A stretch of DNA of 64,000 nucleotides from Spirochaetia bacterium (GTDB lineage Bacteria > Spirochaetota > Spirochaetia > DSM-2461), in assembly GCA_963666985.2 (NCBI GenBank), contig CAXXIA010000002.1:1856001-1920000 (forward strand), read 5' to 3'. Positions within the stretch are counted from its first letter, which is position 1. Each line of letters starts with the position of its first letter. This document shows, piece after piece, positions 9,002 to 36,718 of this stretch. The position numbers and the translations under genes were made by a program. Under the pieces are notes generated by a model that did no database searches, was not told where the DNA came from, and worked only from the letters and a program-made list of their open reading frames with translations.

Positions 9002-9272
9002 AAGAAACAGCTGTTGATGCGCGGCGGCCGCTAATGTGATTAGCGGCCTTGGGCCGAGCGATGGGTATTGGTTGAGAGTTAATGATTTCTGTAAAAGGGA
9101 AAAATCAAATTGAATCGGCTCGGCCAAATTTCGCTTTGGCTGCTTGTGTAGAGATGTTTTGGTTCGGAGTCTGTGGTAAGGTTAAAAAGCGAGCGGAGGT
9201 TCTGGGAATTGTGTTGGGCAGCCAACCGGCTTTGCCGGACGCGAAACTTCGCATAACAGCGGAACGTTTGAT
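9002..9272 (+). repeat. attC-like site 5 (long form)
   Basis: AAGAAAC...GTTTGAT. Confidence 0.9.
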
Positions 9273-9291
9273 GACAGAATTAATTTAGGAT

Positions 9292-10634
9292 TGAGCGACC
9301 AGGACATCCTTTACATTTTAGGTTCAGGACATCGTTTACACAAAACAAGCTTAAACGAAGCATTTGAATCCATCAACTGAAGGGAGAAAGGCATAGGTTT
9401 TCAAATCAATTTCTCCCAATCTGAGATTGTCAAACCATACGGTGAAGCTCTCATCCTCATTCTCCCGAAGTCCAACTTGGTATCCTGAAAAGACATAACT
9501 GACAAAGACTCTATGCCTGTCGATAGTAACGGCTCCCCGATTATTCACCATTCTCACCAGATACCCGGCCGGGTAGATCACCTGAGGGATTCGAGGAGGG
9601 AAAGGCCGATTGGACTTTGTGTAAATACTTCCGGGAGTCTGCATTTTGAGAGCTTCATGCGGACGAACACTGTTGAATTGATTTCTCCAAACATCAAAGT
9701 GTGCCTGATGTTCTGAGAGGTTCCCTTGAATCTGTCCCTGCAATTCGCGTTTGATATCGGCATGCATTCTTTCATGCCCTCCGTTTTCACAAGGCCTTCC
9801 TGGAGTGATGCGATCAAGTTCAATTCCCAAGGCCAGCCACCAAACACTTAAGCGGGTGAGTCCGAGTAATCCCTTCATGGAAGCAAAGGGTGGTCCGTTA
9901 TCGGAGCGGATTACCCGAGGGATTCCATAGAGAGAAAAGAGCTTTTCGAACTCTGTTCTAACTTCTTGTGTGTCAGCCTTTTGGAGAGCTTTGATGGTGA
10001 AGATGTATTTGGAGTATTCATCCCGAACCGTCAGAGGTTCACACTTTTCATTATCGGGAGTGTACCACCATCCTTTGAAGTCGACCGTCCAGATATCATT
10101 AGGGGCTTTGGCCTGCAGATGTGTTTGGATTCGGCTGCCTTTGGTCTGCTGCCGTTTCTTTCGATGATGAACCAGTCCTGCTTTATCAAGGATGCGTTTG
10201 ACGGTGGTGAGGCTTGGGGGATTATTATGAGGATGGGTCTTCTGGTAGATCTCGAGAATCTTTTTTGGCCCCCAGCTGGAGTTGTGCAACGTCTTGATCC
10301 GGATAATACCGCATATAACGTCTTCAGGCGTTTGGTTGGGGCTGCTGCGAGGTCTACGGGGTCGTTCCTTCAACCCGGCGAGCCCTTCCTGGATAAACCG
10401 GTTTTTCCATTTAAGGCCTGTCGGCCGGGAGATCCCGTACTCAGCACAGAGGTCTTTCATACAGACATGGGGATCCATGGCCTTGAGGGCGAACTCGAAT
10501 TTGACGTCCATAATATTGGTCTCCTTCCACGGCATAACCAGCACCTCGATAAGGGAAAGTGCTGATCATTTTAGTTCTTGTCGTGTAAAGGATGTCCTGG
10601 TACTCTCGTGTAAACGATGTCCTGAACCCGTACC
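9292..10634 (-). mobile_element. IS481-family element, variant 1 (no target duplication)
   Basis: TGAGCGACCAGGACATCC...GAACCCGTACC; same as 30129-31471. Confidence 0.92.
9351..10535 (-). CDS. IS481-family transposase
   Basis: HTH + rve DDE core. Confidence 0.92.
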   Translation of the reverse strand: MPWKETNIMDVKFEFALKAMDPHVCMKDLCAEYGISRPTGLKWKNRFIQEGLAGLKERPRRPRSSPNQTPEDVICGIIRIKTLHNSSWGPKKILEIYQKTHPHNNPPSLTTVKRILDKAGLVHHRKKRQQTKGSRIQTHLQAKAPNDIWTVDFKGWWYTPDNEKCEPLTVRDEYSKYIFTIKALQKADTQEVRTEFEKLFSLYGIPRVIRSDNGPPFASMKGLLGLTRLSVWWLALGIELDRITPGRPCENGGHERMHADIKRELQGQIQGNLSEHQAHFDVWRNQFNSVRPHEALKMQTPGSIYTKSNRPFPPRIPQVIYPAGYLVRMVNNRGAVTIDRHRVFVSYVFSGYQVGLRENEDESFTVWFDNLRLGEIDLKTYAFLPSVDGFKCFV

Positions 10635-10696
10635 GAATTTAGGCCTTAAGAGGATACTGAAGACATAATGCAAGGAGAAAGAATAGTATATTCCAT

Positions 10697-11260
10697 TTAT
10701 TTTTTGGCAAACGCCGATAATCCATTACGTACAACTCTGATCATATTAACATTTTCTTCAAAACGATCAAGAATTTCAGCATAAATTTCGATACATTGCT
10801 GATCTGGACGTGTTACAGTTTTCTGAAGAAGGTGATAGACGTCTTTTTCATGAAGCCCTTTTTCTGCTAATTTAATCTGTAACTCTCGTTTTGTCTCATT
10901 AAGTTGAATATGACCTAGTGCTGTTTCCTTTAGTATAGAAAGCATTCGATCAAATTCATTCTGTAGACCTTTCTTTTGCTTTTCAAATTGTCTTTTTTCT
11001 GTCATTAACCGAACTACAATTGCTACACCAACACCCGCTACTACACCGACAAGCAATGTCACAATTCCGAGAGTGAGGGTTAGTACATTTAAAGAAAAAG
11101 AAAAGAAATTATTTGAATCATCAGGAGATAGTAATCTCTCACCTGGACTAGTCATTGAGGATTGAGAGGAATGGTCAGCACCAATCTCAGCATGCATATC
11201 TTGAGTTTGAGCAGAAAGACAAGCACTAAATAATAATATAAAAATGGCTAATCTTTTCAT
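10697..11260 (-). CDS. Membrane protein with signal peptide and coiled coil
   Basis: Hydrophobic N-terminus and TM segment; coupled to response regulator. Confidence 0.72.
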   Translation of the reverse strand: MKRLAIFILLFSACLSAQTQDMHAEIGADHSSQSSMTSPGERLLSPDDSNNFFSFSLNVLTLTLGIVTLLVGVVAGVGVAIVVRLMTEKRQFEKQKKGLQNEFDRMLSILKETALGHIQLNETKRELQIKLAEKGLHEKDVYHLLQKTVTRPDQQCIEIYAEILDRFEENVNMIRVVRNGLSAFAKK

Positions 11261-11628
11261 ATAGCTATTGATCTTCTCAGTGTTTCAAGGTCAATTGGTT
11301 TTTCAACAATATTCAACTTAGTATCTTTTGGAAAAGCTTGAAGAAGCTCACTTCGTGATCTTGCTGATATTACGAGTATGGGTACTTTTTTATTTTTGGC
11401 CCGAATTCGTTGATATAACGCAATGCCTGTTTCTTTTGCTTCTTCAGGATCCATAGAATCCGCGAGTTCCATCATTATGTCTAAAATTATTATATCCTTT
11501 TTCACAACTTCATTTAAATCAGTAATTACTCCTTCAGCATCTGTATATATACTAACTGAATGATGTTTCTTTAGCAGTCTATAGTTTTCAACAGCATCCG
11601 GGTCATCTTCGATAATGACTATTTTCAT
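11257..11628 (-). CDS. Single-domain response regulator (REC)
   Basis: IIEDD, ILDIMM, ISA, EKP motifs. Confidence 0.9.
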   Translation of the reverse strand: MKIVIIEDDPDAVENYRLLKKHHSVSIYTDAEGVITDLNEVVKKDIIILDIMMELADSMDPEEAKETGIALYQRIRAKNKKVPILVISARSRSELLQAFPKDTKLNIVEKPIDLETLRRSIAI

Positions 11629-13750
11629 ATCTATCCTCCTGATCATATCTCACTGGTAAAGAAAACGAAAACACTATAATTGAACCATTCTGTTCAACGG
11701 AAACTTTACCACCATGAAGTTCAACAATTCTTTTAACAAGAAATAAACCAATTCCAGTCCCCTCCATTTTACGAAGCATCGGTGCTTTGCCCCTAACATA
11801 TTTCTCGAATATTATAGACTTTTCTTCCTCTGTAATATGATATTTTGAAGTTTTATTTAAAACTCGAACCCACAAATAGCTATCAATAACTTCACCATAA
11901 ATTTCAATATAAGAGTCTTTATCAGAATATTTAATTGCGTTTTCAATTAACGCATGAAAAGCCATAGATATCGCAATAGAATCACTATATGCGCTGTTTA
12001 AAAGAGAGTTCTTATTCTCGTGTATAATTCTTCTTCGTCTTCTTGCATAAGGCTTTGCAAAGGCTAATACCGGTGCTATGGATTCCAAATAAATGTTTCT
12101 ATATTTTTTCTCTTTTACTACTTCTTCTGGATTTAACGTAAGAGATTTCACTATCCATTCTAGGCGGGCTGCTGTTGATCGAAAATCTCTAAAATAATTA
12201 GAAAATTCTTTTGGTAAGGTATCTTCTTCAATCATACCGTGGGTATGCATTAATTCTATTATTCTATCAGGAGCAAATAGGAAAGAACTGATTGGAGTTC
12301 GTACCTCGTGGCGAAATGTCCGCATATAATCAGTAGCTTGCTCAAGTTCCACTTTTCTTTTTTCTGCAAGCTCTTGTCTTTGTTTATAAGTTTGCTTCTG
12401 ATCAATAAGATTCGCTGTTTGCTCAGCAACACCTATAAGATTATGTATATCAATACTACAGAACTGCGAAGGCTGGTTCCCATCTGTTTCAACCTTATTT
12501 TTACATCTAATAACTCCAAGAAATTCGCCTGTGTGATTTCGAATCGGTACTGCCAACCAGTTCCTTGGTTTTGTAATTGTTGGATCATTAACAATGCGCG
12601 AATTTCTTGGATCATTTTCAATGTCATAAGAGCATTCAAATCTCAATTTGGGTTGATTTATAAAATTGGTTGTAAGAGCCTTAGAATCGATTTGATAGTA
12701 CTCATTATGTTCTGATGTATTAACATTCATGCCTAGTGTACCCAATGAAATTCTTGTTATTCGACGTAGCTGTTTTTCATAAATGAACATTGCACAAGAT
12801 TCCCAGCCAAGAAATTTGCATACAGATTGCGTTATTTTGTTACCGGAGATCTTAATGCTCCATTCTAACTCAATCGCACTTATCTCTCTCTTAACGCTAT
12901 TTAAATCTATAAAACGATCAAAAAACCGTCCAGCTAGATCTCTCTCCAGAATCGAACGCAATAGATTTACCGTCTCAGTTTGGATAATTAAACCGGTATG
13001 CTTGGAGTAGAAAAGAATCAACAGTTTAAGACTCTCTTCTCTTTTATTGTCTGGAGCGCTTACCCAAACTACATTTGCAAATCTCAGATTTGCATTCATA
13101 ATATCAGGTGTTATGCCTGCTTCTATTCTATAATTGCTATGTAGTTCCATACGTTCTACAGCGTTTTGGAAAATTGGAGATAGATCAAGATCGGCATACT
13201 CCTGTAAACATTTTATACTGCCACATAATCGAGTAAAAGCCTGAGTCATGCTGTTATAAATCCAAGCTGAGTACTCGTCGCAAAACATATATTTTGTAAA
13301 TGACATAAGTATTTTATTGGATGATCGACCGTTATCTACGGTAGAAAGTTCATGCAACAAAATATCTTTAGTTTTTGATTTAAATTGATCTACAAGCCTC
13401 ATTGCTTTCTTGTAAAGACTGTTTTGATATATTGCTGAATATAAAAATAGAACTGAAAAATTAGGTTTTATTATAACTATAGTATTCCCAAAGACAAAGG
13501 CTAAGAATAAGCCAATGCCTTTATCGATAAAATTTCTTCTCCGTGCATTTCTGGCAGTCATTAATCTGAACCGATTAATTCCTTTCGTATATAGTCGAAC
13601 AACTTCATAGGAAGAGTTTTTTCTTATTCGAAACCAATATCTATCCTCGTATTTATGGAATACACAAACCATTTTAGATGACCAGTTGGTATCGTAAGTT
13701 GTGTGTGTTTCCAAATTGAATTCCTTTGCTTGGACAGAATAAAAAATCAT
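11603..13750 (-). CDS. GAF-containing sensor histidine kinase
   Basis: RHEVRTP H-box, ENAIKYS N-box, GTGIGLF G-box; LAVPIR GAF-like motif. Confidence 0.9.
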   Translation of the reverse strand: MIFYSVQAKEFNLETHTTYDTNWSSKMVCVFHKYEDRYWFRIRKNSSYEVVRLYTKGINRFRLMTARNARRRNFIDKGIGLFLAFVFGNTIVIIKPNFSVLFLYSAIYQNSLYKKAMRLVDQFKSKTKDILLHELSTVDNGRSSNKILMSFTKYMFCDEYSAWIYNSMTQAFTRLCGSIKCLQEYADLDLSPIFQNAVERMELHSNYRIEAGITPDIMNANLRFANVVWVSAPDNKREESLKLLILFYSKHTGLIIQTETVNLLRSILERDLAGRFFDRFIDLNSVKREISAIELEWSIKISGNKITQSVCKFLGWESCAMFIYEKQLRRITRISLGTLGMNVNTSEHNEYYQIDSKALTTNFINQPKLRFECSYDIENDPRNSRIVNDPTITKPRNWLAVPIRNHTGEFLGVIRCKNKVETDGNQPSQFCSIDIHNLIGVAEQTANLIDQKQTYKQRQELAEKRKVELEQATDYMRTFRHEVRTPISSFLFAPDRIIELMHTHGMIEEDTLPKEFSNYFRDFRSTAARLEWIVKSLTLNPEEVVKEKKYRNIYLESIAPVLAFAKPYARRRRRIIHENKNSLLNSAYSDSIAISMAFHALIENAIKYSDKDSYIEIYGEVIDSYLWVRVLNKTSKYHITEEEKSIIFEKYVRGKAPMLRKMEGTGIGLFLVKRIVELHGGKVSVEQNGSIIVFSFSLPVRYDQEDRYENSHYRR

Positions 13751-14031
13751 ATATCAAAAAATTTGATTTAGCAATAAAAAAATAAGCAACTATAAATTAA
13801 ACGAATAAAATTAATTGTATAAAGAAATTAGGCATAAAGGGAATTAGCTGCTTAATCTAAGGAGGGTCTAATTACAGACTTCTTGGGGCGAATGTTAAAT
13901 GACAATTATGATATTCCGTCGCTTACGGCAGGGCAGTTCATTTTAATGAATTGTAACAAGAGTAATGGTGAGTCTTTCCTAAGTATAATTAATGTAGTTT
14001 TTTTGGGAAAGCGGCTAAATACACAGTTTAG

Positions 14032-14161
14032 CAGGCTGTTGAAGAAGAAAGATTTGGTTCGGAGGCAAGGCCGCCGGAGCGCAGAAAGCGCAGTGTAGTA
14101 GAGCTACATGAGCATTTCGAGCACCGCATACGGCCTATAAGATTCTTTTTTCAACAGCCTG
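14032..14161. mobile_element. 130 bp MITE
   Basis: Terminal IRs CAGGCTGTTGAA / TTCAACAGCCTG flanked by TTAG direct repeats. Confidence 0.75.
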
Positions 14162-14433
14162 TTAGAAATCAAAATAGTTTATAAGCGAGTTAAAATTGTC
14201 TATAATTGATCCAGAATAGTCAAAAAAATTAGAGTAATATTGATGTTGTTTTATGTCTGAAATTGTAGTGTCAATAGTTAATTTGGATATAGTCAATTTA
14301 AAATATAATACTCAGATAATATGAGTAATTTCTTATAGAGGTATTTATATTCTTGATTATGTCATTACTATATGAATTTGTTAATGACAGGTAAGATATA
14401 CTTCTTTGATGGAAGGCTACTAGCACAAGTGAC

Positions 14434-14646
14434 AGATAACAGCTGTTGATGCGCTCCGGCGCCAACTCTCGTTGTCGCCTCCGGGGCTCCGCCCAAATTT
14501 CGTTTTGTCATGACTCTTGCAGATGCGTTTCCGAAAGTGATGTGATACCATCATCAGAGAACAAGGCATTGCTGTAAAATGGCAAGAGCACATGCCAACC
14601 GGCTACGCCGGACACGAAACGTTCGCATAACAGCGGGCCGTTAAAG
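14434..14646 (+). repeat. attC-like site 6
   Basis: AGATAAC...GTTAAAG. Confidence 0.9.
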
Positions 14647-15484
14647 GAAATTCGGACGACGGAATAAAATGGGTCTCTTTTTTGAAGTGTTTTTCTATGG
14701 CAGGCCTTTCCCCTTCATTTGAACAAGTAACAGAAACAGAATTTCTTTGAGTGTTCAGATCTTTTTAACAAGCCTTCCTTTTCTTTGAACGAAACAGGCC
14801 GTTTTGAAGCGGCTTTCTCCTCACCCCCCTCGCCTTTGAGATCATCTTCAAGAAAAAAACCAAAAGCATCGGAATAAAACTCGCTTCGGGATCAGAAGCA
14901 CTTAGTGATAAGGCGGTCGGTTCGGGAGAACTTGTGTCGTGAAGGTTTATGGTTTTTAACGATTATGGGAATCGCTCATGAGAAAATCCTTATCCGTTGA
15001 TGGCTATCGCTTCGGGAAATGAGGCGCTTCCGGTTTGATCGGTTCGCGAGAAAAGGGGTGGTAGCCTGAGAAGAATGAAGGGATGGAGATGAGAAGAATG
15101 GAGATTGTTTTCTCCGTGGTTTTGCCTTTGAGAATAAGGCTGAATGCTTTAAGAGAATACCGGTGTAGAAGGAGAAGACGAACATTCGGATTTACAGAAT
15201 CCGTCCTGAGAGAAAGAGGTCGGGAAAGGCGAATTGCATCGGATGAAGGCCTGAGTAAAGTGATGAGGCGATGAAAGGGAGAATAGGGGTCAGTACGAGA
15301 GAATGGATAGATATTCCGTTAAATGAGTAAAAAGCGGAAGAGGGAAGTCTGTAAAAGGATGAATGAAGAAAAGATGAGAAGGAGAAGGGCAAGAAGAATC
15401 GAAACAAAGGGTCCGGCAAAATGGCGAGGAGGGGTGAGGAGAAGGAGAGGTCTTTATAGATGCGTCGTCCGAACTTCCTTTAAC
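14640..15484. other. ORF-less cassette family N1, copy a (candidate structured ncRNA/ssDNA)
   Basis: No credible ORF; near-identical to 48190-49034 and homologous to 21948-25281. Confidence 0.75.
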
Positions 15485-15682
15485 AGCTGTTGATGCGCTC
15501 CGGCGGTAACGATGTTACCGCCTTCGGGGCTTCGCCCAAATTTGCCTCTGTCATAGATTTTGCTTAAGTCTGTCGCTATGGTAAGATGAGTTGTAGTTAG
15601 CGGTTGATGCTGTGAAGATTCGCAAAATCTCCGCCAGTCGCTACGCGAACGGCAAACTTCGCATACCAGCGGGCCGTTTGGT
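15478..15682 (+). repeat. attC-like site 7
   Basis: CTTTAAC...GTTTGGT. Confidence 0.9.
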
Positions 15683-15757
15683 GCAATATTAGAAAATGTC
15701 ATAAATTATATCTTTCGGGGATATTGGTACAAGTTTCATTATGTCGGCAAAGTCGTA

Positions 15758-15786
15758 TTGAATTATAGTTATACTTAAGTTATACT
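15758..15786 (+). promoter_or_regulatory. Sigma70-like promoter/operator of RHH-mazF
   Basis: TTGAAT-17 bp-TATACT with tandem AGTTATACT repeats, 7 bp before ATG. Confidence 0.65.
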
Positions 15787-15793
15787 TGGCGGT

Positions 15794-16036
15794 ATGAAAA
15801 CGGCAATCTCAATTCCAGATCAATTGTTCAATGACGCTGAGATAACAGCAAAACAATTAGGACTGGCAAGAAGTCAGTTATATGTTAAGGCAATAAAAGA
15901 ATATATAGACAATCATAATAAAGACAAAATACGAGAGAAACTTAACTCAATTTATTCCACAAACACTAACATCACCGAAATTGATAATATCGGAGTTGAT
16001 TCACTTCGCCAGGCAACATTAAATGATACGTGGTGA
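15794..16036 (+). CDS. RHH/CopG-type antitoxin
   Basis: MKTAISIPDQLF...RSQLYVKAIKEY. Confidence 0.88.
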   Translation: MKTAISIPDQLFNDAEITAKQLGLARSQLYVKAIKEYIDNHNKDKIREKLNSIYSTNTNITEIDNIGVDSLRQATLNDTW

Positions 16037-16364
16037 AATTTGGTGGGCTGATTTAGGGCTTCCATTCGGAAGTGAGCCTGGATTTAAGCGGCCAGTCGTT
16101 ATAATACAAGACGATTCGTTCAACAAAAGTAAAATTCAAACGGTAATTGTCGCGTCAATAACAACAAATTTAAATTTAGCCGATGCCCCTGGAAATGTTT
16201 ACATAGAATCAGAAGAATCTGGATTATCCAAAGTTGGAGTAATAAACATTTCACAGATATCAACTATAGATAAAAGGCGATTAATAGAAAGGGTAAAGAT
16301 ACTACCGTCTAGTATCATGGAAGAGCTAGATTTTGGAATAAAAATTATTTTGAATATCAGATAG
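16023..16364 (+). CDS. mazF: PemK/MazF toxin
   Basis: RGEIWWADL...GSEPGFKRPVVIIQ...SQISTIDK. Confidence 0.92.
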   Translation: MIRGEIWWADLGLPFGSEPGFKRPVVIIQDDSFNKSKIQTVIVASITTNLNLADAPGNVYIESEESGLSKVGVINISQISTIDKRRLIERVKILPSSIMEELDFGIKIILNIR

Positions 16365-16379
16365 ATTTTCTGATACTGC

Positions 16380-16594
16380 ACCAAACAGCTGTTGATGCGC
16401 TCCGAATACATTTGCAAGCAAATGTATTCTCCGGGGCTCCGCCCAAATTTCGCTTTGTCCATGTTTCTTGCAGATGCGTTCCTGGAAGTGGTGTGATAAG
16501 GTGAACAGCGAACAGGCTTTCTGGCGAAGTGCAAGAACGCATGCCAACCGGCTTCGCCGGACGCGAAACTTCGCATACCAGCGGGCCGTTAAAT
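16380..16594 (+). repeat. attC-like site 8
   Basis: ACCAAAC...GTTAAAT. Confidence 0.9.
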
Positions 16595-16633
16595 GAACTA
16601 TGAGAATTCTTTATAGCTTGAAGGAGTCGATTT

Positions 16634-19021: not shown

Positions 19022-19024
19022 TTC

Positions 19025-19295
19025 ATTTAACAGCTGTTGATGCGCGGCGGCCGCTAATGGGATTAGCGGCCTTGGGCCGAGCGATGGAAAACAATGAGTT
19101 TTATGATTTATGTAAAAGGGAGAAATGAAATTGGTTCGGCTCGGCCAAATTTCGCTTTGGCGATGGCTCTTGCAGATGCGTTCTTGAAAGTTGTGTGATA
19201 CTCTGAAGAGCGAACGAGCTTTCTGCTAAGAGCAAGAGCACATGCCAACCGGCTTCGCCGGCCGCGAAACTTCGCATACCAGCGGAACGTTATTC
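19025..19295 (+). repeat. attC-like site 9 (long form)
   Basis: ATTTAAC...GTTATTC. Confidence 0.9.
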
Positions 19296-19359
19296 GAAAT
19301 GCCTTTTTAAATAAATTTATCCCTCGGCATCCGTGCCTCGGGTATTGGAGACAGTAATA

Positions 19360-20262: not shown

Positions 20263-20334
20263 AAAGATGTTGATTGGTTTCCAAAGTACATCCATGTACT
20301 TTGGAAAAAGGCTTTGAAGTAGTCAAGGCACTTC

Positions 20335-20539
20335 GAATAACAGATGTTGATGCGCTCCGGCTGAAAATGGGATTTTCAGCCTTCGGGCTCTGCCACAGTT
20401 TGCTTTGTCATATCATTTGCGATTTTGAATAAGAAACATGTGTGGTATAATTGGAGTAGTTGAGGGTGCAAAGTTATACGGCAAATGATACGCCAAGCCT
20501 GCGGCGCGCAAACCGTCGCATAACATCGGGCCGTTATCG
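20335..20539 (+). repeat. attC-like site 10 (divergent, compensatory change)
   Basis: GAATAAC-AGATGTTGATGCG...CGCATAACATC-GGGCC-GTTATCG. Confidence 0.85.
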
Positions 20540-20588
20540 GCTAGAATATTTAAATATAAGAAATTGATAATATTAGAAGGAGAGCTAA

Positions 20589-21089: not shown

Positions 21090-21139
21090 AGTATATTTTT
21101 GCAACAATATAAATAAAACAACAGAGGAAATAGTCGATA

Positions 21140-21697
21140 ATGAATAATAAAAGATCCTTCTTTTTAATTGTCATTTCAATCGTCGTTATTTCATTGCCAC
21201 CAATTTTCTATATTTTAAATTTTTGGGGAACTCCTCTTTCTTCAGAAAATATTGACTGGGGTGAATTTGGTTCTTATATTGGAGGAATCCTTACTCCAAT
21301 TCTATCTGTTATTACAATTCTAATACTAATTTTCCAGCAAATTAATTATCGAAAAGAAAATGAAAAATACAAAAAAGAGAAAATAGTTAATACCTACATT
21401 GATCTTTTATTTAAGGCTGAAGAAAAGTTAAGTAATACTGAAGAAGAAACAAAAAAGTTCCTTCCTCCAAGATATCAAAGAGTTAGCAAATCAGAGAATC
21501 CTAAAAATACTGGAGATTATCAGATAATTTGGGATTTTGTTGATGATTGGATATTATATAAAAAAATACAAGATAAAATTGCACTGATAGATCCAGAAAA
21601 TCCTGTAATTTCATATGCAAAAAATAAGTACAAAGATATTTTAATAACTCTTGAATCGCTAAAATATATAAAATTGAATAAGATTTATACGTTGTAG
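21140..21697 (+). CDS. Two-TM membrane protein
   Basis: DWGEFGSYIGGILTPILS motif. Confidence 0.75.
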   Translation: MNNKRSFFLIVISIVVISLPPIFYILNFWGTPLSSENIDWGEFGSYIGGILTPILSVITILILIFQQINYRKENEKYKKEKIVNTYIDLLFKAEEKLSNTEEETKKFLPPRYQRVSKSENPKNTGDYQIIWDFVDDWILYKKIQDKIALIDPENPVISYAKNKYKDILITLESLKYIKLNKIYTL

Positions 21698-21745
21698 TAT
21701 TTCTTTGTCGAATAAAGAAAATTGTTTCCCATTAAATATTCCAGC

Positions 21746-21954
21746 CGATAACAGCTGTTGATGCGCTCCGGCTGATAACGGGGTTATCAGCCTTCGGGGC
21801 TTCGCCCAAATTTGCCTCTGTCATAGATTTTGCGTAAGTCTGACGTTGTGGTAAGATGAGTTGCAGTATGCGGTTGATATTGTGAAGAAACGCAAAATCT
21901 CCGCCAGTCGCCTTCGGCGAACGGCAAACTTCGCATAACAGCGGAACGTTAAAG
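21746..21954 (+). repeat. attC-like site 11
   Basis: CGATAAC...GTTAAAG. Confidence 0.9.
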
Positions 21955-22285
21955 GAAATTCGGACGACGACAATGAGCGACCAGGACATCCTTTACATTT
22001 TAGGTTCAGGACATCGTTTACACTAAACAAGTTTAAACGAAGCATTTGAACCCATCAACAGAGGGTATAAATGCAAATGTTTTCCGATCAATTTCTCCTA
22101 ATCTTAAATTGTCAAACCAGACGGTAAAAGTCTCATCTTCATTTTCTCGAAGACCAACTTGGTATCCAACAAAGACATAACTGACGAAAATCCTGTGTCG
22201 GTCTATGGTCACCGCCCCACGATTATTTATCATTCTCACCTCATATCCGGATGGATATGGAATTCCCAGACTTCTATAGACACCT

Positions 22286-23104
22286 CTAGCTTGCAATAGA
22301 ACCCTTTTCAAATTCAACCGGAGAGATCCCGCCAAGATGCTTGTGGCGACGCTTCCGGTTGTAAAATGCTTCAATATAATCGAACACATCAGACCGTGCT
22401 TCATCCCTTGTTCGATATGTCTTCCGGCGAATCCGTTCCTTCTTCAAACTACCAAAGAATGATTCCATGGCTGCATTGTCCCAGCAGTTTCCACGACGGC
22501 TCATACTTCTCTTCAGTCCGTTGTCACGACAGAATCTAATCCAGTCACCGCTGTCAAATTGGCCGCCCTGATCGGAATGGATAAGGACTTTGTTTTTCGG
22601 GCGTCTCTTCCAAACAGCTGTCAGTAAGGCCTGGATAACCAGATCACGATGAAGCGTGTTCTGCATGGACCAGCCGATGATTCTCCTGGAATAAAGATCC
22701 ATGACAACTGCGAGATACAGCCAACCTTCATGAGTTCGAATATAGGTAATATCCGTTGTCCACGCAGTATCGGGTTCTTCTACATTAAAGTCCTGCTGGA
22801 GATGGTTCGGGGCAGCCTGGGACGGTTTTCCATACTTGAATCGACGCATCTTGAAGCCGACCATCGCCCTGATACCATGCTCTCGCATGATTCTGGCTAC
22901 TCGATGGACGCTGCAGGATTCTCCGTCTTCCATCAAATCCTCATGGATTCGTGGACTTCCGTAGACCTGATCGCTTTCTTCGTAGAAGTGGCGAATCTTC
23001 TTCAACAACCGAATGTCTTCAATCTTTCTCTCTGATTGAGGTTTTCTCAACCATGCATAGAATCCGCTTCGATTGACATCGAGAACCCGGCACATAGTCT
23101 TCAC
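22286..23104 (-). CDS. IS3 OrfB transposase
   Basis: WTTDITY, HSDQG, DNAAMESFF. Confidence 0.92.
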   Translation of the reverse strand: MKTMCRVLDVNRSGFYAWLRKPQSERKIEDIRLLKKIRHFYEESDQVYGSPRIHEDLMEDGESCSVHRVARIMREHGIRAMVGFKMRRFKYGKPSQAAPNHLQQDFNVEEPDTAWTTDITYIRTHEGWLYLAVVMDLYSRRIIGWSMQNTLHRDLVIQALLTAVWKRRPKNKVLIHSDQGGQFDSGDWIRFCRDNGLKRSMSRRGNCWDNAAMESFFGSLKKERIRRKTYRTRDEARSDVFDYIEAFYNRKRRHKHLGGISPVEFEKGSIAS

Positions 23105-23142
23105 TCTGAATTCAGCCCTGTAGTTTTTGATGAAGGCATATC

Positions 23143-23439
23143 TTACTCGGACTGACTCGCGAAGTATGCCGCGGCTTTTTTTAAGATATCTCGCTCTTCC
23201 TGCACCCGCCGCAGCTCTGCTTTCAGCCTGGCATTCTCGACTTCAAGCTCCTTATTTGCTTTTGCCGATTCTGGTGCTTTTGGATTTCGAGAATCGGCCT
23301 TCAGCCACTTATAGAGGCTATGGGTTGAGACTCCTATACGCTCAGAGACTTCCTTGATGGAGTAGCCCCGCTCAACAACCTGGCCGACTGCTTCTGCCTT
23401 GAATTCGTCCGAATATCGCGGACTTCCCATGATGTACAC
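23143..23439 (-). CDS. IS3 OrfA
   Basis: YSDEFKAEAV...ERDILKKAAAYF; A7G slippery site. Confidence 0.92.
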   Translation of the reverse strand: MYIMGSPRYSDEFKAEAVGQVVERGYSIKEVSERIGVSTHSLYKWLKADSRNPKAPESAKANKELEVENARLKAELRRVQEERDILKKAAAYFASQSE

Positions 23440-25274
23440 TCCTTCCTCATTTTGAGTTTAGCAGTGTCTATCAAAAGCTGGGAATTCCAATAAATCACCT
23501 GTGGAATCTGAGAAGGGAAGGGCCGTTTGGACTTTGTGTAAACACTTCCGGGAGTCTGCATTTTAAGAGCTTCATGAGGTCGAACACTGTTGAACTGATT
23601 TCTCCAGACATCAAAATGCGCCTGATGTTCAGAGAGGTTACCCTGAATCTGTCCCTGTAATTCCCGTTTGATATCGGCATGCATTCTCTCATGCCCCCCG
23701 TTCTCACAAGGTCGTCCCGGAGTGATGCGATCAAGTTCGATTCCCAAGGCCAACCACCAAACACTTAAGCGTGTGAGCCCCAGCAGTCCCTTCATGGAGG
23801 CAAAGGGAGGTCCGTTGTCGGACCTAATGACTCTGGGCATTCCATAGATGGAAAAGAGCTTCTCAAACTCGGTTCTAACTTCTTGTGTGTCAGCCTTTTG
23901 GAGTGCTTTGATGGTAAAGATGTATTTGGAAAACTCATCCCGAACGGTCAAAGGTTCACATCGTTCTCCCTCGGGAGTATACCACCAGCCTTTGAAATCC
24001 ACGGTCCAGATGTCATTCGGCTGCTTGGCTTGAAGACGGCTCTGGATTCGCTGAGATTTATTCTGCCGGCGTTTCTTTCGGTGCACTACCAGACCTGCTT
24101 TATCCAGGATGCGTTTCACGGTGGTCAGACTTGGACTCTCCTGGTGGGGATGTGTCTTCTGGTAGATATCGAGGATTTTCTTTGGCCCCCATTTGGTGTG
24201 TCGTGATTTGATTCGGACGATGTCGCAGATGACATTCTCCGGTGTCTGGTGAGGGCAGATACGAGGTTTCCTGGTTCTTTCATTCAGGCCGGCGAGCCCT
24301 TCCTGAATAAACCGGTTTTTCCATTTAAGGCCTGTCGGCCGGGAGATCCCGTACTCAGCACAGAGGTCTTTCATACAGACATGGGGATCCATGGCCTTGA
24401 GGGCGAACTCGAATTTGACGTCCATAATATTGGTCTCCTTCCACGGCATAATCAGCACCTCGATAAGGGAAAGTACTGATCATTTTAGTCCTTGTCGTGT
24501 AAAGGATGTCCTGGTACTCTCGTGTAAACGATGTCGTGGACCCGTACCGACAAGAAAGGGGCTTCTTTTTTTGAGGTGTTTTTCTATGGCAACTCTTTCC
24601 CTTTTATTTGGCTAAGTACGTGAACCTAAACCCCTTCAAGTGTGAATTTCTTTTTTGAGGCCTTCCACCTCTGTAAAAGATAAAGGTCAATTTAATCCGG
24701 CTTTCTCCTCACCCCAACACCATAACAAACATCTTTATATGAGAATCCAGAACGCATCGGAACATTTCTCGCTTCATTCTTAGATACTTTTAGTGCGAAG
24801 GCGGTCAGTTCCAGAGAAGTTGTCAGAGAGACTTTTATGGTTATTAAAAAGAATGGGAGTTGCTCATAGTTGAATCCTTCGCAGTTAATAAATCTCGCAT
24901 CGAAAAAGGATACGCTTATGAATTATTGGGTTCAAGAAGATTGGGTGGTAGCCTAAGAGTATGAATTAATGAATTTACTGTTCATGGAGATTGTTATGGC
25001 CGTGGTTCGCTATTAATGGTTTAGGCAGAACGCTTTAAGAGCATGCCTGTGTATATGGAGAAGATGAACAAAAGGTTTTATAGAATCCGTTCTGATAGAA
25101 GAGTGGTCTTGGAAGGCTAATCGCATCAGAAGATGTCCTTGTAAAGTGAAGAGGCGGGGAAAGTGTAAATACTGGTCAGTATGCTGAGAATAAAAAATGT
25201 TCCGATGAAAGAATCAAAACGGAAGAGGGGGTGAGGAGCAAGAGAGGTTGGTAAGGGCTCGTCGTCCGAACTTC

Positions 25275-25506
25275 CTTTAACAGCTGTTGATGCGCGGCGG
25301 CCGCTAATGGAATTAGCGGCCTTGGGCCGAGGAGATGTGTATTATTTAAGAATTATGCCATTTGCCAAAGAGATCATTCACATTGATTCGGCTCGGCCAA
25401 ATTGGCCCTTTGACCAAACCCTGCGAAAATTGTGATACAATTTCCTTGAGTTTGTTCAAGCCCGCAAGGGGCCGGGCCAACTTCGCATACCAGCGGAACG
25501 TTTGAC
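25275..25506 (+). repeat. attC-like site 12
   Basis: CTTTAAC...GTTTGAC. Confidence 0.88.
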
Positions 25507-25576
25507 GATAAAATCTGAAATATCTTTTTGAGTCATCTATGCATCAATAAATTGCGATTAATTTACCATAAATAAA

Positions 25577-26424
25577 TTATTCAACTTTGTAGACATGAAG
25601 TCCATTCATCTGATTAGCCAGATAGATGAAGTTTCCATCACCCCATACGTCATAGGCAATTCCTCCTTGGTCATCTGAATCAATAGAGGTCAGATTTCCC
25701 GAAGAGTCAACCGAATAACTGTAAATACCATTTCCACCACGAGCAACATATAAGAAATTTCCATCACCACATACACTATAGGCAGTTGTTCCCAAAGCCT
25801 CGGAATCGATATGGGTTAAGTTTCCTGAAGAGTCAACTGAATAACTGTAAATACCACTTCCACCACGAGCAACATATATAAAGTTTCCATCACCCCATAC
25901 AGCATAGGCATCCTGACCGGGATCATCGCAATCGATATGGGTTAGATTTCCTGAAGAATCAACCGAATAGCTGTGAAGTCCTCCTTCTCCATTAGCTAAA
26001 TAGATAAAATCATCATCACCCCACACACCACGTGCAATTTCTCCCGGATCATCGGAATCGATGAGGGTTAGATTTCCTGAAGAATCAACAGAAAAACTGT
26101 AAATCCCACTTGTTCCATTAGCTAAATATATGAAGTCTTCATCACCCCATACATCAAATGCAAATCCTCCATGGTCATCAGAATCGATCTTGTTTAGAAT
26201 CCCTGAAGAGTCAACCGAATAGCTAAGGAGTCCTCTATATCCATTAGCTAGATATATAAAGTTTCCATCACCCCATACACCCAAGGCCAATTCTCCCGGA
26301 TCATCGGAATCGATGTGGGATAGAATCCCGGAAGAATCAACCGAATAGGTTTTAAAACTTCCAGAAAAGTTTGCAATATAAACGAAGTCACCATCACTCC
26401 AAACACCATTTGCTTGACTACCTG
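25577..26424 (-). pseudogene. LVIVD-repeat beta-propeller protein, 5'-truncated by IS3
   Basis: Tandem 40-aa repeats VWGDGNFIYLANG..GL.SYSVDSSGNLT.IDSDD; ORF start falls in IS end. Confidence 0.8.
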
Positions 26425-26454
26425 TGAACCACACCGGGATTCCCGGAGGCTGTT

Positions 26455-27366
26455 TTAGTTGAGTCCGGCAGCTACTGCCGAACATTCTTCCTGTTCATAA
26501 TACATCGATTCAAACTTCGCCGGGGGGATATCTCCAAGCGGCTCCATGATTCGGCGGTTGTTGTACCAGTCCACCCAGTCCAGGGTTTCCAATTCAACCT
26601 GTTCTATTCTCTGCCATGAGCTCCTCCGGTGGATGACTTCGGCTTTGTAGAGACCGTTGATAGTCTCAGCCATTGCGTTATCGTACGAGTCTCCTTTGCT
26701 CCCAACCGAAGGCTCGATACCGGCCTCTGTCAATCGATCCGAATATCGAAACGAAAGATACTGCCTTCCACGATCACTGTGATGAATCAGACCGTCGACT
26801 ACTTCCCTGGCCCAAAGCGCCTGATTGAGCGCATCAAGAGTAAAGTCGGTTTTCATCGACCGGCTAGCTCGCCAACCGACGATCATCCGGGAGAAGACAT
26901 CAATGATGAAGGCAACATAGACGAAGCCCTGCCAGGTGGAAACGTAGGTGAAATCCGCAACCCAAAGCCGATTCGGCTTGGAAGCTGTGAAATCTCTGTT
27001 AACCAGATCCTCGGGTCTTTCATCTTTCGGTGACGGGAAGGTGGTCTTGGTTCCCTTGCCCCGAATGACGCCTCTGAGACCCATAGAACGCATAAGACGT
27101 TCGACGGTACACCTGGCTACATGGAGATGCTTCTCATTTCTAAGAACCTTCCAGACTTTCCTGGCGCCGTAGACTCTACGGTTCTCATCCCATATCTCCT
27201 GAATCTCATTTTTAAGAAACCGGTCTCGACGTGTTCGATCAGGTTCGAGTTCAGGATCAGCTTCTCTTGCTTTTTGTAGATGATAGGTCGACGGAGCAAT
27301 CGGCAGTGATTTGCAGATAGGCTCGACTCCATATTCTTCCCGGTTCTCATTGATAAAACCGACCAT
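26455..27366 (-). CDS. IS3 OrfB transposase
   Basis: WVADFTYV, HHSDRG, DNAMAETINGLYK. Confidence 0.92.
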   Translation of the reverse strand: MVGFINENREEYGVEPICKSLPIAPSTYHLQKAREADPELEPDRTRRDRFLKNEIQEIWDENRRVYGARKVWKVLRNEKHLHVARCTVERLMRSMGLRGVIRGKGTKTTFPSPKDERPEDLVNRDFTASKPNRLWVADFTYVSTWQGFVYVAFIIDVFSRMIVGWRASRSMKTDFTLDALNQALWAREVVDGLIHHSDRGRQYLSFRYSDRLTEAGIEPSVGSKGDSYDNAMAETINGLYKAEVIHRRSSWQRIEQVELETLDWVDWYNNRRIMEPLGDIPPAKFESMYYEQEECSAVAAGLN

Positions 27367-27686
27367 CAGTTCTTTCGGCGGTCGAGCTCCGCCTGGGCAA
27401 AATACGCTGAGGCCTTTCGAAGAATTTCGTTGGCAGTACGAAGTTCTCGATTCTCCTTTTCCAGCTCTTTAAGACGCTTACGCTCTTCACTGGTTAGACC
27501 ATCCCGCTGCCCTTCATCGATTTCTGCCTGCCGAACCCATTTCCGGAGTGTTTCGGGTGTACAGCCGATCTTAGCGGATATTGAACAAATCGCCGACCAC
27601 TGAGATTCGCTGTCCTTCTGCTTCTCAAACACCATCCGGACAGATTGTTCCCGGACTTCCTTGGGGTACCTTGTTTGCTTTCCCAT
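27366..27686 (-). CDS. IS3 OrfA
   Basis: ETLRKWVRQAE...NEILRKASAYFAQAELDR. Confidence 0.92.
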   Translation of the reverse strand: MGKQTRYPKEVREQSVRMVFEKQKDSESQWSAICSISAKIGCTPETLRKWVRQAEIDEGQRDGLTSEERKRLKELEKENRELRTANEILRKASAYFAQAELDRRKN

Positions 27687-27736
27687 GACACAATCCTCTC
27701 AAGTAATTGTGCCTCCGGTAAAGCCGGGGTGGTTCA

Positions 27737-28401
27737 CTACTCATTCAAATGATGCGTTAGTACCTCTACCCGACAAAGCTATCTGGGCTGCAACAAATAA
27801 GAATCTTTATCAAGGCCGACTTGATGTTCGATCACTTAGAGCAATTACTGGAACTATAGAATCAGAACTTGCTGTCTTTACAGAAGACCTTTTTGCAAAA
27901 GAATGGATAGAAAGTATCCTTCGACACAACGCTATTGAAAATTTCGACAGAATTGAGGTGCATGCTCTTTCAGGTGATGGTACTGCAGTTAAACTTCACA
28001 AGAATCACAACGCAGATCCAGCTGTGAAAGTACCGTCAATATGTTTCATTGATGGAGATTCCAAGCAGGAAGAATCTGAGGACCTAATGATCTATCGACT
28101 GCCAGGAGAATGCCCTGAGTCTTATATCTGTAACAAAGTTAATGATAAAATCGATGAGTTTATGGCAGAACTTGCTATTTCGTTGCATCTTGCTTATGAA
28201 AAACAAGAAAGAGTTAAAGAGGTTATTGGCTCAATTCTAACAACGAACTACGATCCTCATTTATTATTTTCACAGATTGGTAAGAAAATCGCATTTGTAT
28301 CTGAAACCATAGTACGAAACGCATTCCTTTCGATTTGGAATAAATCCTATAGCAGTGAATCTGGAGAGATCTATAGAACAATTAGTTCACATCTAACTTA
28401 A
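27737..28401 (+). pseudogene. C-terminal remnant of ABC-ATPase + TOPRIM-like (OLD-type) protein
   Basis: TTHS H-loop right at IS edge, VFTED and FIDGD motifs. Confidence 0.65.
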
Positions 28402-28447
28402 TGATCGCTATATTTATAAGAAAATCATGTGCTGAAATGTTCTGTTC

Positions 28448-28653
28448 GTTTAACAGCTGTTGATGCGCTCCGGCGGTAACGAGGTTACCGCCTCCGGGGC
28501 TCTGCCCAAATTTGCCTCTGTCATAGATTTTGCGGAAGGCTTTCGCTGTGATAAAATGAGTTGCGGTTAGCGGTTGAAGTTGTGAAGAAGCGCAAAATCT
28601 CCGCCAGTCGCTTGAGCGAACGGCAAACTTCGCATAACAGCGGAACGTTAGAC
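28448..28653 (+). repeat. attC-like site 13
   Basis: GTTTAAC...GTTAGAC. Confidence 0.9.
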
Positions 28654-28817
28654 GGCGTTCTCGTTTAAATCCATATATAGAAAAAAATAGTTATAGATTA
28701 AGGTTAATTCAATATAGGCAAAGTATGTACATGATCCGGTTTATGCGTGCAAGAAAACAAAATAAATGCACATAATAGTGTTGATAAGTTCCTAAAACCT
28801 CCTAATATGTACATAAG

Positions 28818-29903
28818 ATGACGAGCGCATACAACGATTTACCACTACTACCACCTACAGCAGATTTGCAGACGAAAGAACTCCTCAAAGCAGCAATAAG
28901 CGCTAACGTAGAGCTTGCCCGGTTAAAGGGATACTGTACTCTTCTTCCCAACGATTCAATTCTACTAAGCTCTCTCGTCTTAAAAGAGGCGAGGGCTAGT
29001 TCTAATATTGAAAATATCATCACAACGCACGATGCACTTTATCAGGCAGCGGCCAGTAAGAGTCCGGTTACAGATCCTCAGACTAAAGAGGTTTTGAATT
29101 ACCGAGCAGCGCTGTATCGAGGTAATGCTTTCATTCGAGAAAAAGGTATTTTAACGGTTAATACAATCCTTGGGATTCAAGAAGAACTTGAAAAAAACTC
29201 TGCCGGCATCAGACGTCTTCCAGGAACGAGTCTGGTAAATGATTCCACTGGAGAGGTTATCTATACGCCACCGGACAATCCTGATTCGATACAAGCACTT
29301 CTTAAGAATTTAGAGGTTTATATCAATACCGATGATGATATGGATGCACTGATAAAAATGGCGGTCATTCATTATCAGTTTGAATCAATTCATCCTTTTT
29401 ATGATGGTAACGGGAGAACCGGAAGAATCCTCAACGTTCTTTTTCTAGTGCTTAAAGGGTTGCTGGATAGTCCTATTCTTTATTTGAGCTCTTATATCAA
29501 TAGAAACCGATCAGAATATTATAAACGGCTTCAATCGGTTCGAACAAATGAAGGATGGGAAAGTTGGATTGGATTTATGCTCAAAGCGGTTGAGGTGACA
29601 TCGAAAGAAACGTTGCTGCTTATCACTTCCATCACAGCACTTATGGAAAGTACAACGGAAAAGGCGAAGTTGGGTTTACCATCAACCAGTTATTCAAAAG
29701 AGTTAATCGAGTTGATATTTGAAAATCCGTATACGAAAATCGAGCATGTTGTAAATCGTGGTTTGGCGGAACGCCGAACAGCGAGTAAGTATCTCAAGCA
29801 GTTGGAGGGAATAGGGATTCTCCAATCATACAAGGCGGGTAAAGAGATTCTGTTTATCAATAAAGGCCTTTATGAAGTATTAAAGAGAGAGAACGCCGTC
29901 TAA
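28818..29903 (+). CDS. Fic family protein (Fic_N + Fic + wHTH)
   Basis: HPFYDGNGRTGR; ASSNIENI inhibitory motif. Confidence 0.92.
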   Translation: MTSAYNDLPLLPPTADLQTKELLKAAISANVELARLKGYCTLLPNDSILLSSLVLKEARASSNIENIITTHDALYQAAASKSPVTDPQTKEVLNYRAALYRGNAFIREKGILTVNTILGIQEELEKNSAGIRRLPGTSLVNDSTGEVIYTPPDNPDSIQALLKNLEVYINTDDDMDALIKMAVIHYQFESIHPFYDGNGRTGRILNVLFLVLKGLLDSPILYLSSYINRNRSEYYKRLQSVRTNEGWESWIGFMLKAVEVTSKETLLLITSITALMESTTEKAKLGLPSTSYSKELIELIFENPYTKIEHVVNRGLAERRTASKYLKQLEGIGILQSYKAGKEILFINKGLYEVLKRENAV

Positions 29904-30110
29904 CAGCTGTTGATGCGCTCCGAATACATTTGCAAGCAAATGTATTCTCCGGGGCTCCGCCCAAATTTCGCTTTGTCATGGCTCTTGCAGATGCGTTTCT
30001 GTAAGTTGTGTGATAATCTGAAGAGCGAACGGGCTTTCTGTTAAAGGCAAGAGCACATGCCAACCGGCTGCGCCGGCCGCGAAACTTCGCATACCAGCGG
30101 AACGTTAAAT
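29898..30110 (+). repeat. attC-like site 14
   Basis: GTCTAAC...GTTAAAT. Confidence 0.9.
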
Positions 30111-30128
30111 GAAAACACAAAATAAATT

Positions 30129-31471
30129 TGAGCGACCAGGACATCCTTTACATTTTAGGTTCAGGACATCGTTTACACAAAACAAGCTTAAACGAAGCAT
30201 TTGAATCCATCAACTGAAGGGAGAAAGGCATAGGTTTTCAAATCAATTTCTCCCAATCTGAGATTGTCAAACCATACGGTGAAGCTCTCATCCTCATTCT
30301 CCCGAAGTCCAACTTGGTATCCTGAAAAGACATAACTGACAAAGACTCTATGCCTGTCGATAGTAACGGCTCCCCGATTATTCACCATTCTCACCAGATA
30401 CCCGGCCGGGTAGATCACCTGAGGGATTCGAGGAGGGAAAGGCCGATTGGACTTTGTGTAAATACTTCCGGGAGTCTGCATTTTGAGAGCTTCATGCGGA
30501 CGAACACTGTTGAATTGATTTCTCCAAACATCAAAGTGTGCCTGATGTTCTGAGAGGTTCCCTTGAATCTGTCCCTGCAATTCGCGTTTGATATCGGCAT
30601 GCATTCTTTCATGCCCTCCGTTTTCACAAGGCCTTCCTGGAGTGATGCGATCAAGTTCAATTCCCAAGGCCAGCCACCAAACACTTAAGCGGGTGAGTCC
30701 GAGTAATCCCTTCATGGAAGCAAAGGGTGGTCCGTTATCGGAGCGGATTACCCGAGGGATTCCATAGAGAGAAAAGAGCTTTTCGAACTCTGTTCTAACT
30801 TCTTGTGTGTCAGCCTTTTGGAGAGCTTTGATGGTGAAGATGTATTTGGAGTATTCATCCCGAACCGTCAGAGGTTCACACTTTTCATTATCGGGAGTGT
30901 ACCACCATCCTTTGAAGTCGACCGTCCAGATATCATTAGGGGCTTTGGCCTGCAGATGTGTTTGGATTCGGCTGCCTTTGGTCTGCTGCCGTTTCTTTCG
31001 ATGATGAACCAGTCCTGCTTTATCAAGGATGCGTTTGACGGTGGTGAGGCTTGGGGGATTATTATGAGGATGGGTCTTCTGGTAGATCTCGAGAATCTTT
31101 TTTGGCCCCCAGCTGGAGTTGTGCAACGTCTTGATCCGGATAATACCGCATATAACGTCTTCAGGCGTTTGGTTGGGGCTGCTGCGAGGTCTACGGGGTC
31201 GTTCCTTCAACCCGGCGAGCCCTTCCTGGATAAACCGGTTTTTCCATTTAAGGCCTGTCGGCCGGGAGATCCCGTACTCAGCACAGAGGTCTTTCATACA
31301 GACATGGGGATCCATGGCCTTGAGGGCGAACTCGAATTTGACGTCCATAATATTGGTCTCCTTCCACGGCATAACCAGCACCTCGATAAGGGAAAGTGCT
31401 GATCATTTTAGTTCTTGTCGTGTAAAGGATGTCCTGGTACTCTCGTGTAAACGATGTCCTGAACCCGTACC
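30129..31471 (-). mobile_element. IS481-family element, variant 1
   Basis: AATT duplication (30125-30128 / 31472-31475). Confidence 0.92.
30188..31372 (-). CDS. IS481-family transposase
   Basis: Same protein as 9351-10535. Confidence 0.92.
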   Translation of the reverse strand: MPWKETNIMDVKFEFALKAMDPHVCMKDLCAEYGISRPTGLKWKNRFIQEGLAGLKERPRRPRSSPNQTPEDVICGIIRIKTLHNSSWGPKKILEIYQKTHPHNNPPSLTTVKRILDKAGLVHHRKKRQQTKGSRIQTHLQAKAPNDIWTVDFKGWWYTPDNEKCEPLTVRDEYSKYIFTIKALQKADTQEVRTEFEKLFSLYGIPRVIRSDNGPPFASMKGLLGLTRLSVWWLALGIELDRITPGRPCENGGHERMHADIKRELQGQIQGNLSEHQAHFDVWRNQFNSVRPHEALKMQTPGSIYTKSNRPFPPRIPQVIYPAGYLVRMVNNRGAVTIDRHRVFVSYVFSGYQVGLRENEDESFTVWFDNLRLGEIDLKTYAFLPSVDGFKCFV

Positions 31472-31522
31472 AATTTATTAAGTTATAATTATATAAATCC
31501 TGTAGAAATAGAGGAGTAAAAC

Positions 31523-36690: not shown

Positions 36691-36718
36691 TGGAATTCCC
36701 AGACTTCTATAGACACCT

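Follow-up and report, generated by a model that had tools for sequence, protein, structure and literature searches.

An IS481-like insertion sequence at a fixed distance and in one orientation beside attC sites of a spirochaete cassette array

Background

Mobile elements that have attC sites and their arrays as a habitat include insertion sequences (IS) of the IS1111-attC group, on which the work cited is that of Tetu and Holmes (2008) and of Post and Hall (2009), and group IIC-attC introns. This report concerns an IS481-like element with a single DDE transposase gene that lies beside attC sites in a 64,000-bp stretch of DNA (the window; C2:1856001-1920000) from a 4.86-Mb spirochaete genome, which was assigned to its phylum from kin and named relatives. 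Coordinates are window positions unless a contig is given, negative ones lying upstream of the window start, and offsets run from the G of the attC core GTT to the tip of the element. A site-hunting IS beside attC is real, widespread and undescribed in the literature searched, where no DDE element was reported to keep a fixed distance from attC; the search took in few subscription papers and not ISfinder, so this is not proof of absence.

According to the available portions of the sources (10.1101/2022.12.17.520857, PMC10132070), the IS1202 elements that hunt dif and pdif sites (ISAba32/ISAjo2 group) share many features with this element: a single gene for a DDE transposase with two helix-turn-helix (HTH) regions, a DDE core and a beta-barrel; an extra binding box at each end; a fixed side and orientation beside a tyrosine-recombinase site; a short target duplication; and partial copies that retain the site-facing end. 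The preliminary description of the window had invoked these elements as an analogy, which holds for the fixed distance but not for its size, since IS1202 elements sit with their left end 5 bp from the XerC arm, whereas the target here is attC, with the element and its relatives 18-26 bp from the crossover, and this element has its right end 25-26 bp from an attC G. The IS1202 transposases also have 441-457 residues (range 400-500) rather than 394, Q rather than K at position E+7, and TGT rather than TGA/GGT tips; the ISNCY_2 profile matches the present protein far more weakly (33.8 bits versus 250); and contact with XerC was proposed there, whereas direct motif reading is indicated here. The IS1111-attC elements ISKpn4 and ISPst6 are likewise specialised on cassette recombination sites but, as far as the available part of PMC11187229 describes them, use a DEDD enzyme with a guide RNA and insert at a position in attC, whereas the present DDE element has no room for a guide, makes a target duplication and lies outside attC, which stays whole. 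Group IIC-attC introns share the habitat of attC arrays but are retroelements inserting at attC itself (available part of PMC3001079).

By family, the element is closest to IS481, which gives the best profile for all 90 aligned members of the group and to which relatives 39-41% identical are assigned in RefSeq, although the score of 203.1 bits with NF033577 lies below the curated cut-off of 224. It differs from IS481 in its fixed-distance targeting, in its unequal ends without 5'-TGT (TGAGCG and GGTACG; some relatives have TGT at the short tip) and in its 4-bp duplications, where the available part of PMC10045372 gives mostly 6 bp within a range of 2-15 bp. The closest solved folds, IS21 IstA and Tn7 TnsB, also have several boxes per end and a barrel after the DDE core, but they need a separate ATPase or target selector and this element has neither.

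Insertions beside attC sites within the array

The window belongs to an array of 154 kb. All 87 of its attC-like right ends are on a single strand, and the rest of the genome has none. An inverted-repeat score proved unable to tell attC stems from random DNA, whether here or in relatives, and matching of core to inverse core was used in its place; in 70 of the 76 cassettes free of IS the two agree at 6 or 7 of their 7 bases, forming a direct-repeat array (GTT/AAC). Each of three attC sites that were folded gave a bottom-strand hairpin with a bulged (extrahelical) base, and the base of the hairpin is located at GTT.

Genome-wide mapping located 13 tips of the element, ten of them in the array, where every one lies 25 or 26 bp after the G and in one orientation, the 3' end of the transposase gene facing attC (offsets in order: 26, 25, 25, 25, 25, 26, 26, 25, 26, 25; the second-last copy is a 130-bp relic with a slightly ambiguous tip). 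The three offsets measured from the TGAGCG tips in the preliminary description are exact (Table 1), and the GTT that it placed near -113 for the first copy was found at -111. Such an offset would arise by chance in about 6e-4 of insertions, or about 2e-26 for the nine copies after the first has defined the rule. All ten left flanks are distinct, and the two IS variants of the preliminary description are real (85% nucleotide and 89% amino acid identity). The seven full-length copies of variant A differ by 0-1 base and have therefore spread recently. By comparison, IS3-family copies in the array lie 180, 310, 203 and 1312 bp past the G and IS21-family copies 979, 570 and approximately 200-250 bp past it, in both orientations; the 310-bp IS3 and 979-bp IS21 copies lie within copies of the IS481-like element. 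Replication bias was considered as the cause of the orientation and set aside, since genes of the in-array copies run against the fork and two of three copies outside the array run with it (coarse skew).

Among the 12 copies with both ends, target duplications are 4 bp in eight, 3 bp in one, 5 bp in one and absent from two. The latter, at 9292 and 77553, are hybrids of two insertion sites, because their flanks do not match, theirs are the only IS-bearing cassettes in which the core fails to match the inverse core (3/7 and 4/7 bases), and the right flank at 77553 corresponds to position +22 onward of another common cassette type. The left flank of the copy at 9292 derives from a 500-bp cassette type without a long open reading frame (ORF), which recurs often in the array (40547, 49294, 49794 and 58501); its last base is not the one present in empty alleles of this type, so that the true offset may be 25. 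Metagenome run X1 contains a copy of 98% identity whose left flank agrees with +25 (its first two bases, GT, were inferred, as the contig ends there) and whose right flank resembles position +21 of a cassette type present in this genome.

The insertion leaves attC intact, as first described: cassette ends are whole in eight of ten cases. The further suggestion that the IS rides cassettes found no support, since no IS-bearing cassette is duplicated in the genome and the attC sites upstream of the insertions still favour one variant, as though they had stayed in place, the latter being suggestive only; with the cassette ends intact, riding is possible. Short remnants consisting of the attC-facing end alone also occur at cassette starts, at G295:C1:2375724 and 2392477 (L267 and L268), at G038:C3:159318 and at window coordinate 71037 of this genome (G000). 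The cassettes of L267 and L268 carry a promoter-like stretch, together with what we take to be an antitoxin-like gene.

Insertions outside the array and the target motif

The three copies outside the array occupy isolated sites, two of which adjoin or lie in ordinary genes, and no attC left end was found at any of the three. Two of these copies differ by 0-1 base from copies in the array; the third (G000:C1:1275945-1275998) carries at its long end a tandem duplication of 25 bp, beyond which the 4-bp target duplication is preserved. With a scoring matrix built from attC ends alone and 12 offsets tried per copy, all three score best at offset 25 or 26. Tail probabilities over the full window of -20 to +5 are 4e-4, 0.045 and 0.071 (combined 1.4e-4); over -12 to 0, an interval picked after looking at the data, they are 2e-5, 8e-3 and 3.5e-3 (combined 1.6e-7). 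Seventeen control ends (14 off-array IS3 or IS21 ends with approximate tips, and three far ends) score lower, the best reaching -6.8 against -2.1, 0.1 and 16.1.

What the off-array sites retain is C.GC.G..CG, within the degenerate attC motif CMGCKG..CG, of which the hexamer CMGCKG is its own reverse complement; they keep only 2 of 6 bases of TT and 2 of 21 bases of the arm at -20 to -14. The longer form TAMCMGCKG..CG occurs at 92 sites in the genome, 74 of them in the array, which is close to the 10 of 13 copies seen there. Position -2, which belongs to the unpaired spacer, is A at 9 of 10 occupied sites as against 28 of 77 (p 0.0016). Of the distance-measured targeting of attC by a DDE transposase that the preliminary description proposed, the fixed distance and orientation beside attC stand, here and across a wide clade, but attC as such (as a hairpin or an IntI complex) is not supported as the target, because three off-array copies obey the same distance from the bare motif.

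Transposase and element ends

The element consists of a single gene without a frameshift (394 amino acids from ATG; Pfam LZ_Tnp_IS481, HTH_32 and rve) between unequal tips, with two 16-bp boxes at each end; a promoter scan gave nothing above chance. Catalytic residues D155, D215 and E258 are invariant, and K265 occupies E258+7. The predicted structure (predicted local distance difference test, pLDDT, 91) has two HTH regions, a DDE core and a C-terminal beta-barrel, and its nearest solved structures are IS21 IstA, TnsB and retroviral integrases. Residues N334 and R336 in the first loop of the barrel are present in all 62 clusters of the clade described below, versus 22% and 12% outside it, and on this model the loop N334-x-R336 would be the best candidate for a motif reader. 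In foamy-virus integrase, an arginine in the matching loop touches target bases.

Distribution of the habit among relatives

Relatives collected from genomes, metagenomes and kin amount to 263 loci, with 180 distinct short-tip flanks, 159 of them long enough for analysis; 49 loci have no short tip assignable under the rule used. CGTT precedes the outer box by 29-32 bp in 86 of the 159 flanks and by 36-37 bp in nine (95 together), whereas long-tip flanks have it at those distances in 2 of 154; the motif-facing end is the short tip whichever way the gene runs. Eight of the nine 36-37 bp cases come from this genome and the ninth, L107, is a 62% identical element beside a clear attC at an offset of approximately 26.

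Insertion at a fixed distance from an attC-like core, with the short tip towards it, is the habit of one clade. It comprises 62 of the 94 clusters formed at 90% identity (FastTree support 0.99; Shimodaira-Hasegawa-like approximate likelihood ratio test, SH-aLRT, 100 in a quick tree of 52 of the 94), for a node that was chosen after seeing the labels and among kin that are not independent, and it splits into a branch at 25-26 bp and one at 18-21 bp. A core-like motif is present, mostly at 18-21 bp, in 48 of 54 clade clusters with a usable flank and in 3 of 27 outside (8 and 5 clusters, respectively, lack such a flank). Three of the six misses look technical (an interrupted end, a cut contig and a gap), one has a degenerate core and two are unexplained; the hits outside the clade (L054, L033 and the cluster of L209, with L179 in an earlier labelling) were treated as chance.

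Arrays were checked directly in five genomes: G295 and G307, which are Leptospira by likeness to named loci, the Turneriella G038, and G039 and G040. Fetched regions hold 83 right ends in G295 and 104 in G307, with 52 and 27 in G038 and smaller clusters in G039 and G040. Short tips follow the core at 20-21 bp in 8 of 8 cases in G295 (one core, missed by the pattern, was read by eye) and 4 of 4 in G307; copy L026 of G038 has no GTT at the expected position. Large arrays comparable to the present one thus occur in Leptospira and Turneriella, and in three genomes no such recombinase as that of the present array lies within the fetched regions.

Missing duplications among the relatives have two sources, chimeric short-read contigs and real hybrids; several copies without duplication in finished genomes also have mismatched cores, and recombination between IS copies in arrays is documented in the available part of PMC11023631.

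A DNA search of 401 genomes of the class found one partial close copy, viral contigs contain distant relatives only (at most 41% identity), and genome G036 of the same genus has eight matches (47%), dispersed and with no clear motif at the seven that were fetched. In G028, also of the same genus, the far end of a related element runs straight into a cassette start (L309:1750-1800; …CGGACC then GTT), which suggests that this end may imitate that of an attC and act in recombination. Another related element, L030, adjoins an array of clustered regularly interspaced short palindromic repeats (CRISPR).

Sister clades hold to other sites. Of 13 distinct flanks of Leptospira elements approximately 40% identical, 12 have TATGTC at a distance of 26-27 bp; by eye, six of the 12 sites are dif-like and six are the bare motif, and plasmid copies lie beside dif-like sites in 4 of 4 inspected. 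In this IS481 clade (L209-L224, L251-L262, L375-L378), which is separate from the IS1202 family, the motif often coincides with the XerD arm of a dif-like site on a replicon of Leptospira or Turneriella. In related elements L024, L031-L040, L045, L058, L062, L064, L124, L155 and L157 the short tip often abuts 7-bp tandem repeats, neighbours that were found among relatives in Verrucomicrobia, Myxococcota and metagenomes. Choice of a motif at a fixed distance thus recurs in the group, the motifs differing.

The array recombinase

A 277-residue tyrosine recombinase gene stands at the head of the array, outside the window and pointing away (G000:C2:1777133-1777966), beside an attI-like first junction. 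The protein scores 224.6 against a cut-off of 220 with NF040815, and 220 against a cut-off of 265 with TIGR02249, in two stretches of which the best ends at profile position 177 of 315; the IntI-specific insertion was not found in it. The array would accordingly be integron-like in behaviour yet departs from an integron in its recombinase, which matches the integron-integrase profile in pieces and below the cut-off. Cassettes repeat at scattered positions in the array, which points only indirectly to integrase-driven excision. The attC sites are 200-265 bp long with unusual box spacing, unlike the textbook attC layout.

Mechanism of target choice

The transposase itself probably reads a short motif in duplex attC-flank DNA, rather than being recruited by an integrase, because the off-array copies keep the spacer motif and lose the TT and the upstream arm. 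At each end several subunits would occupy the two boxes, in the manner of IS21 IstA; one subunit, with the C-terminal beta-barrel as motif reader, would bind approximately TAMCMGCKG..CG, that is, the spacer and crossover G of the host attC, as ordinary double-stranded DNA; and the complex would cut at about +21/22 and +25/26. The array could then serve as a large, renewable and low-cost landing field, because landing just inside the next cassette usually misses both attC and the cassette gene: the forward ORF starts beyond +35 in 38 of 49 cassettes in which it can be called, and at or before +21 in nine. Since every copy has the same orientation, cassette blocks could be deleted when copies recombine with each other or when the element makes targeted intramolecular jumps, and hybrids such as that at 9292 would be left behind.

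Several findings weigh against this proposal. There are only three off-array sites, of which two are weak (tail probabilities 8e-3 and 3.5e-3) and one lacks TAM. The minimal motif alone has 1299 sites, 75 of them in the array, so that other determinants or selection must act, and the preference at -2 falls to approximately 0.2 after correction for 126 looks. In the 18-21 bp relatives, for which almost no off-array sites are known, the spacer varies even for one element and the distance tracks GTT rather than the upstream box (standard deviation 0.90 versus 1.22); the motif must therefore differ between subclades. Exact duplications of at least 3 bp were found in only 26 of 91 relatives (shuffle mean 6). 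N334/R336 is one of many clade markers, I272 doing equally well, and N334 is variable in the most similar database proteins, which have no assigned target site. Finally, four of the five hosts checked encode similar recombinases, the fifth lying outside the clade, so that the integrase may yet be involved.

An alternative which we consider unlikely but alive is that the transposase is recruited by a host recombinase of integron or Xer type bound at attC, as proposed for IS1202 and XerC. Targeting follows attC across hosts with widely differing spacers, the distance in the large subclade tracks the GTT core, and targeted hosts encode such recombinases; the attC arm ACTTCGCATAA of this array is identical to an XerC arm listed in the available part of PMC10132070, and the homologous barrel of IstA binds a partner ATPase (PMC11208146, as far as available), which is why recruitment by a host protein keeps its place as a rival. 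It would leave unexplained the off-array sites, which retain the spacer without the GTT core and the Xer-like arm, and the attI-like junction, a single site that has neither motif nor copy. Recognition of folded attC, as a hairpin or cruciform with insertion at a fixed distance from its base, would explain the tolerance of sequence across hosts and suits the long bottom-strand hairpins based at GTT. We nevertheless regard it as improbable: the three off-array sites are isolated, without an attC left end and in two cases next to or in ordinary genes (the inverted-repeat score, blind to attC versus random DNA, cannot exclude hairpins there), a symmetric cruciform would not favour the right side alone, and the spacer variant seems to matter.

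Two further explanations have very little to commend them. The pattern might reflect no real targeting, but either a single old insertion that cassette movement or conversion has multiplied or random insertions filtered by selection; hybrids are indeed common and some relatives show one left flank three times, but ten different left flanks, cores that match their own cassette end in eight cases, separate duplications and two variants make this highly improbable, as do the tolerance of IS3 and IS21 elsewhere in the array and the long cassette leaders, which could accept insertions at many positions. A guide RNA, on which the best known attC-targeting IS rely (available part of PMC11187229), is the least credible explanation of all for an enzyme of DDE rather than DEDD type in an element with only approximately 100 and 60 non-coding bases, mostly boxes; the hexamers CAGCGG, CCGCTG and CCGCGG were not found in the element, and an Rfam scan of it gave no match at E 1.

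Direct reading of DNA, if correct, bears on how one-gene site hunters such as IS1202 at dif find their sites: contact with a bound recombinase has been the proposal, and the off-target copies here point instead to direct reading and name a motif and a loop. The element represents an additional, DDE-based way for mobile DNA to settle in cassette arrays while sparing attC, its same-facing copies offer arrays a route to lose cassette blocks, and its ends mark large atypical arrays in spirochaetes. With 1.3 kb, a fixed distance and a fixed orientation, it is a candidate minimal targeted integrator. More tentatively, and with rather more doubt than confidence, we suggest a one-gene IS481-like radiation in which the barrel is an exchangeable target selector, set in one clade for attC ends (at a distance of 18-21 or 25-26 bp), in a sister clade for the XerD arm of dif-like sites and in others for 7-bp repeats. 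The transposase would then be minimal, protein-only, oriented and site-specific; it would need no guide RNA, ATPase or host partner, could be retargeted through its barrel and would drive the loss of whole blocks from large cassette arrays.

Features and cassette cargo of the window

Table 1. Positions of IS copies, attC-like sites and control elements in the window (TSD, target-site duplication)
Feature	Position	Strand	Remarks
IS481-like copy, variant B	1..1253, tip at -86 outside window	-	25 bp past attC G at -111; TSD AGGT
attC-like site upstream of second copy	9002..9272	+	inverse core AAC 9006-9008; core G 9266; imperfect bottom-strand hairpin
Proposed target motif TAMCAGCGGRMC-G, positions -12 to 0	9254..9266	+	portion retained at three off-array sites
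IS481-like copy, variant A, 1343 bp	9292..10634	-	offset 26; hybrid flanks, no TSD; core/inverse core match 3/7
Short attC-facing end, 3' of transposase gene	9292..9340	+	8-nt tip; two 16-bp boxes 9300-9315, 9325-9340
Long end away from attC, 5' of gene	10584..10634	-	10-nt tip beginning GGT; two 16-bp boxes
Transposase	9351..10535	-	two HTH regions, DDE core D155/D215/E258 (numbered from GTG at 10544), C-terminal beta-barrel
attC-like site	21746..21954	+	core G 21948
IS481-like copy, variant B	21974..24548	-	offset 26; TSD GACAA; split by IS3-family element
IS3-family element inside IS481-like copy	22258..23489	-	nested
attC-like site	29898..30110	+	core G 30104
IS481-like copy, variant A	30129..31471	-	offset 25; TSD AATT (30125-30128, 31472-31475)
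IS3-family control copy	36691..37922	-	203 bp past attC G
IS3-family control copy	53987..55218	+	1312 bp past attC G; opposite orientation
IS21-family control copy (istA/istB)	58752..60948	-	~200-250 bp past attC G; ends approximate

Some of the cassette cargo has a flavour of defence (1096-3039, 6040-7941, 8252-8877 and 61465-63750 in the window), including a NACHT protein and an N6-methylase by Pfam and, by eye, one pair that resembles a methylase with its endonuclease and another that resembles a toxin-antitoxin system of PIN type. Downstream of the copy at 9292, its hybrid cassette encodes a histidine kinase, a response-regulator-like protein and a third product on the minus strand (10697-13750), and an ORF at 25577-26485 contains approximately five internal repeats of 126 bp.

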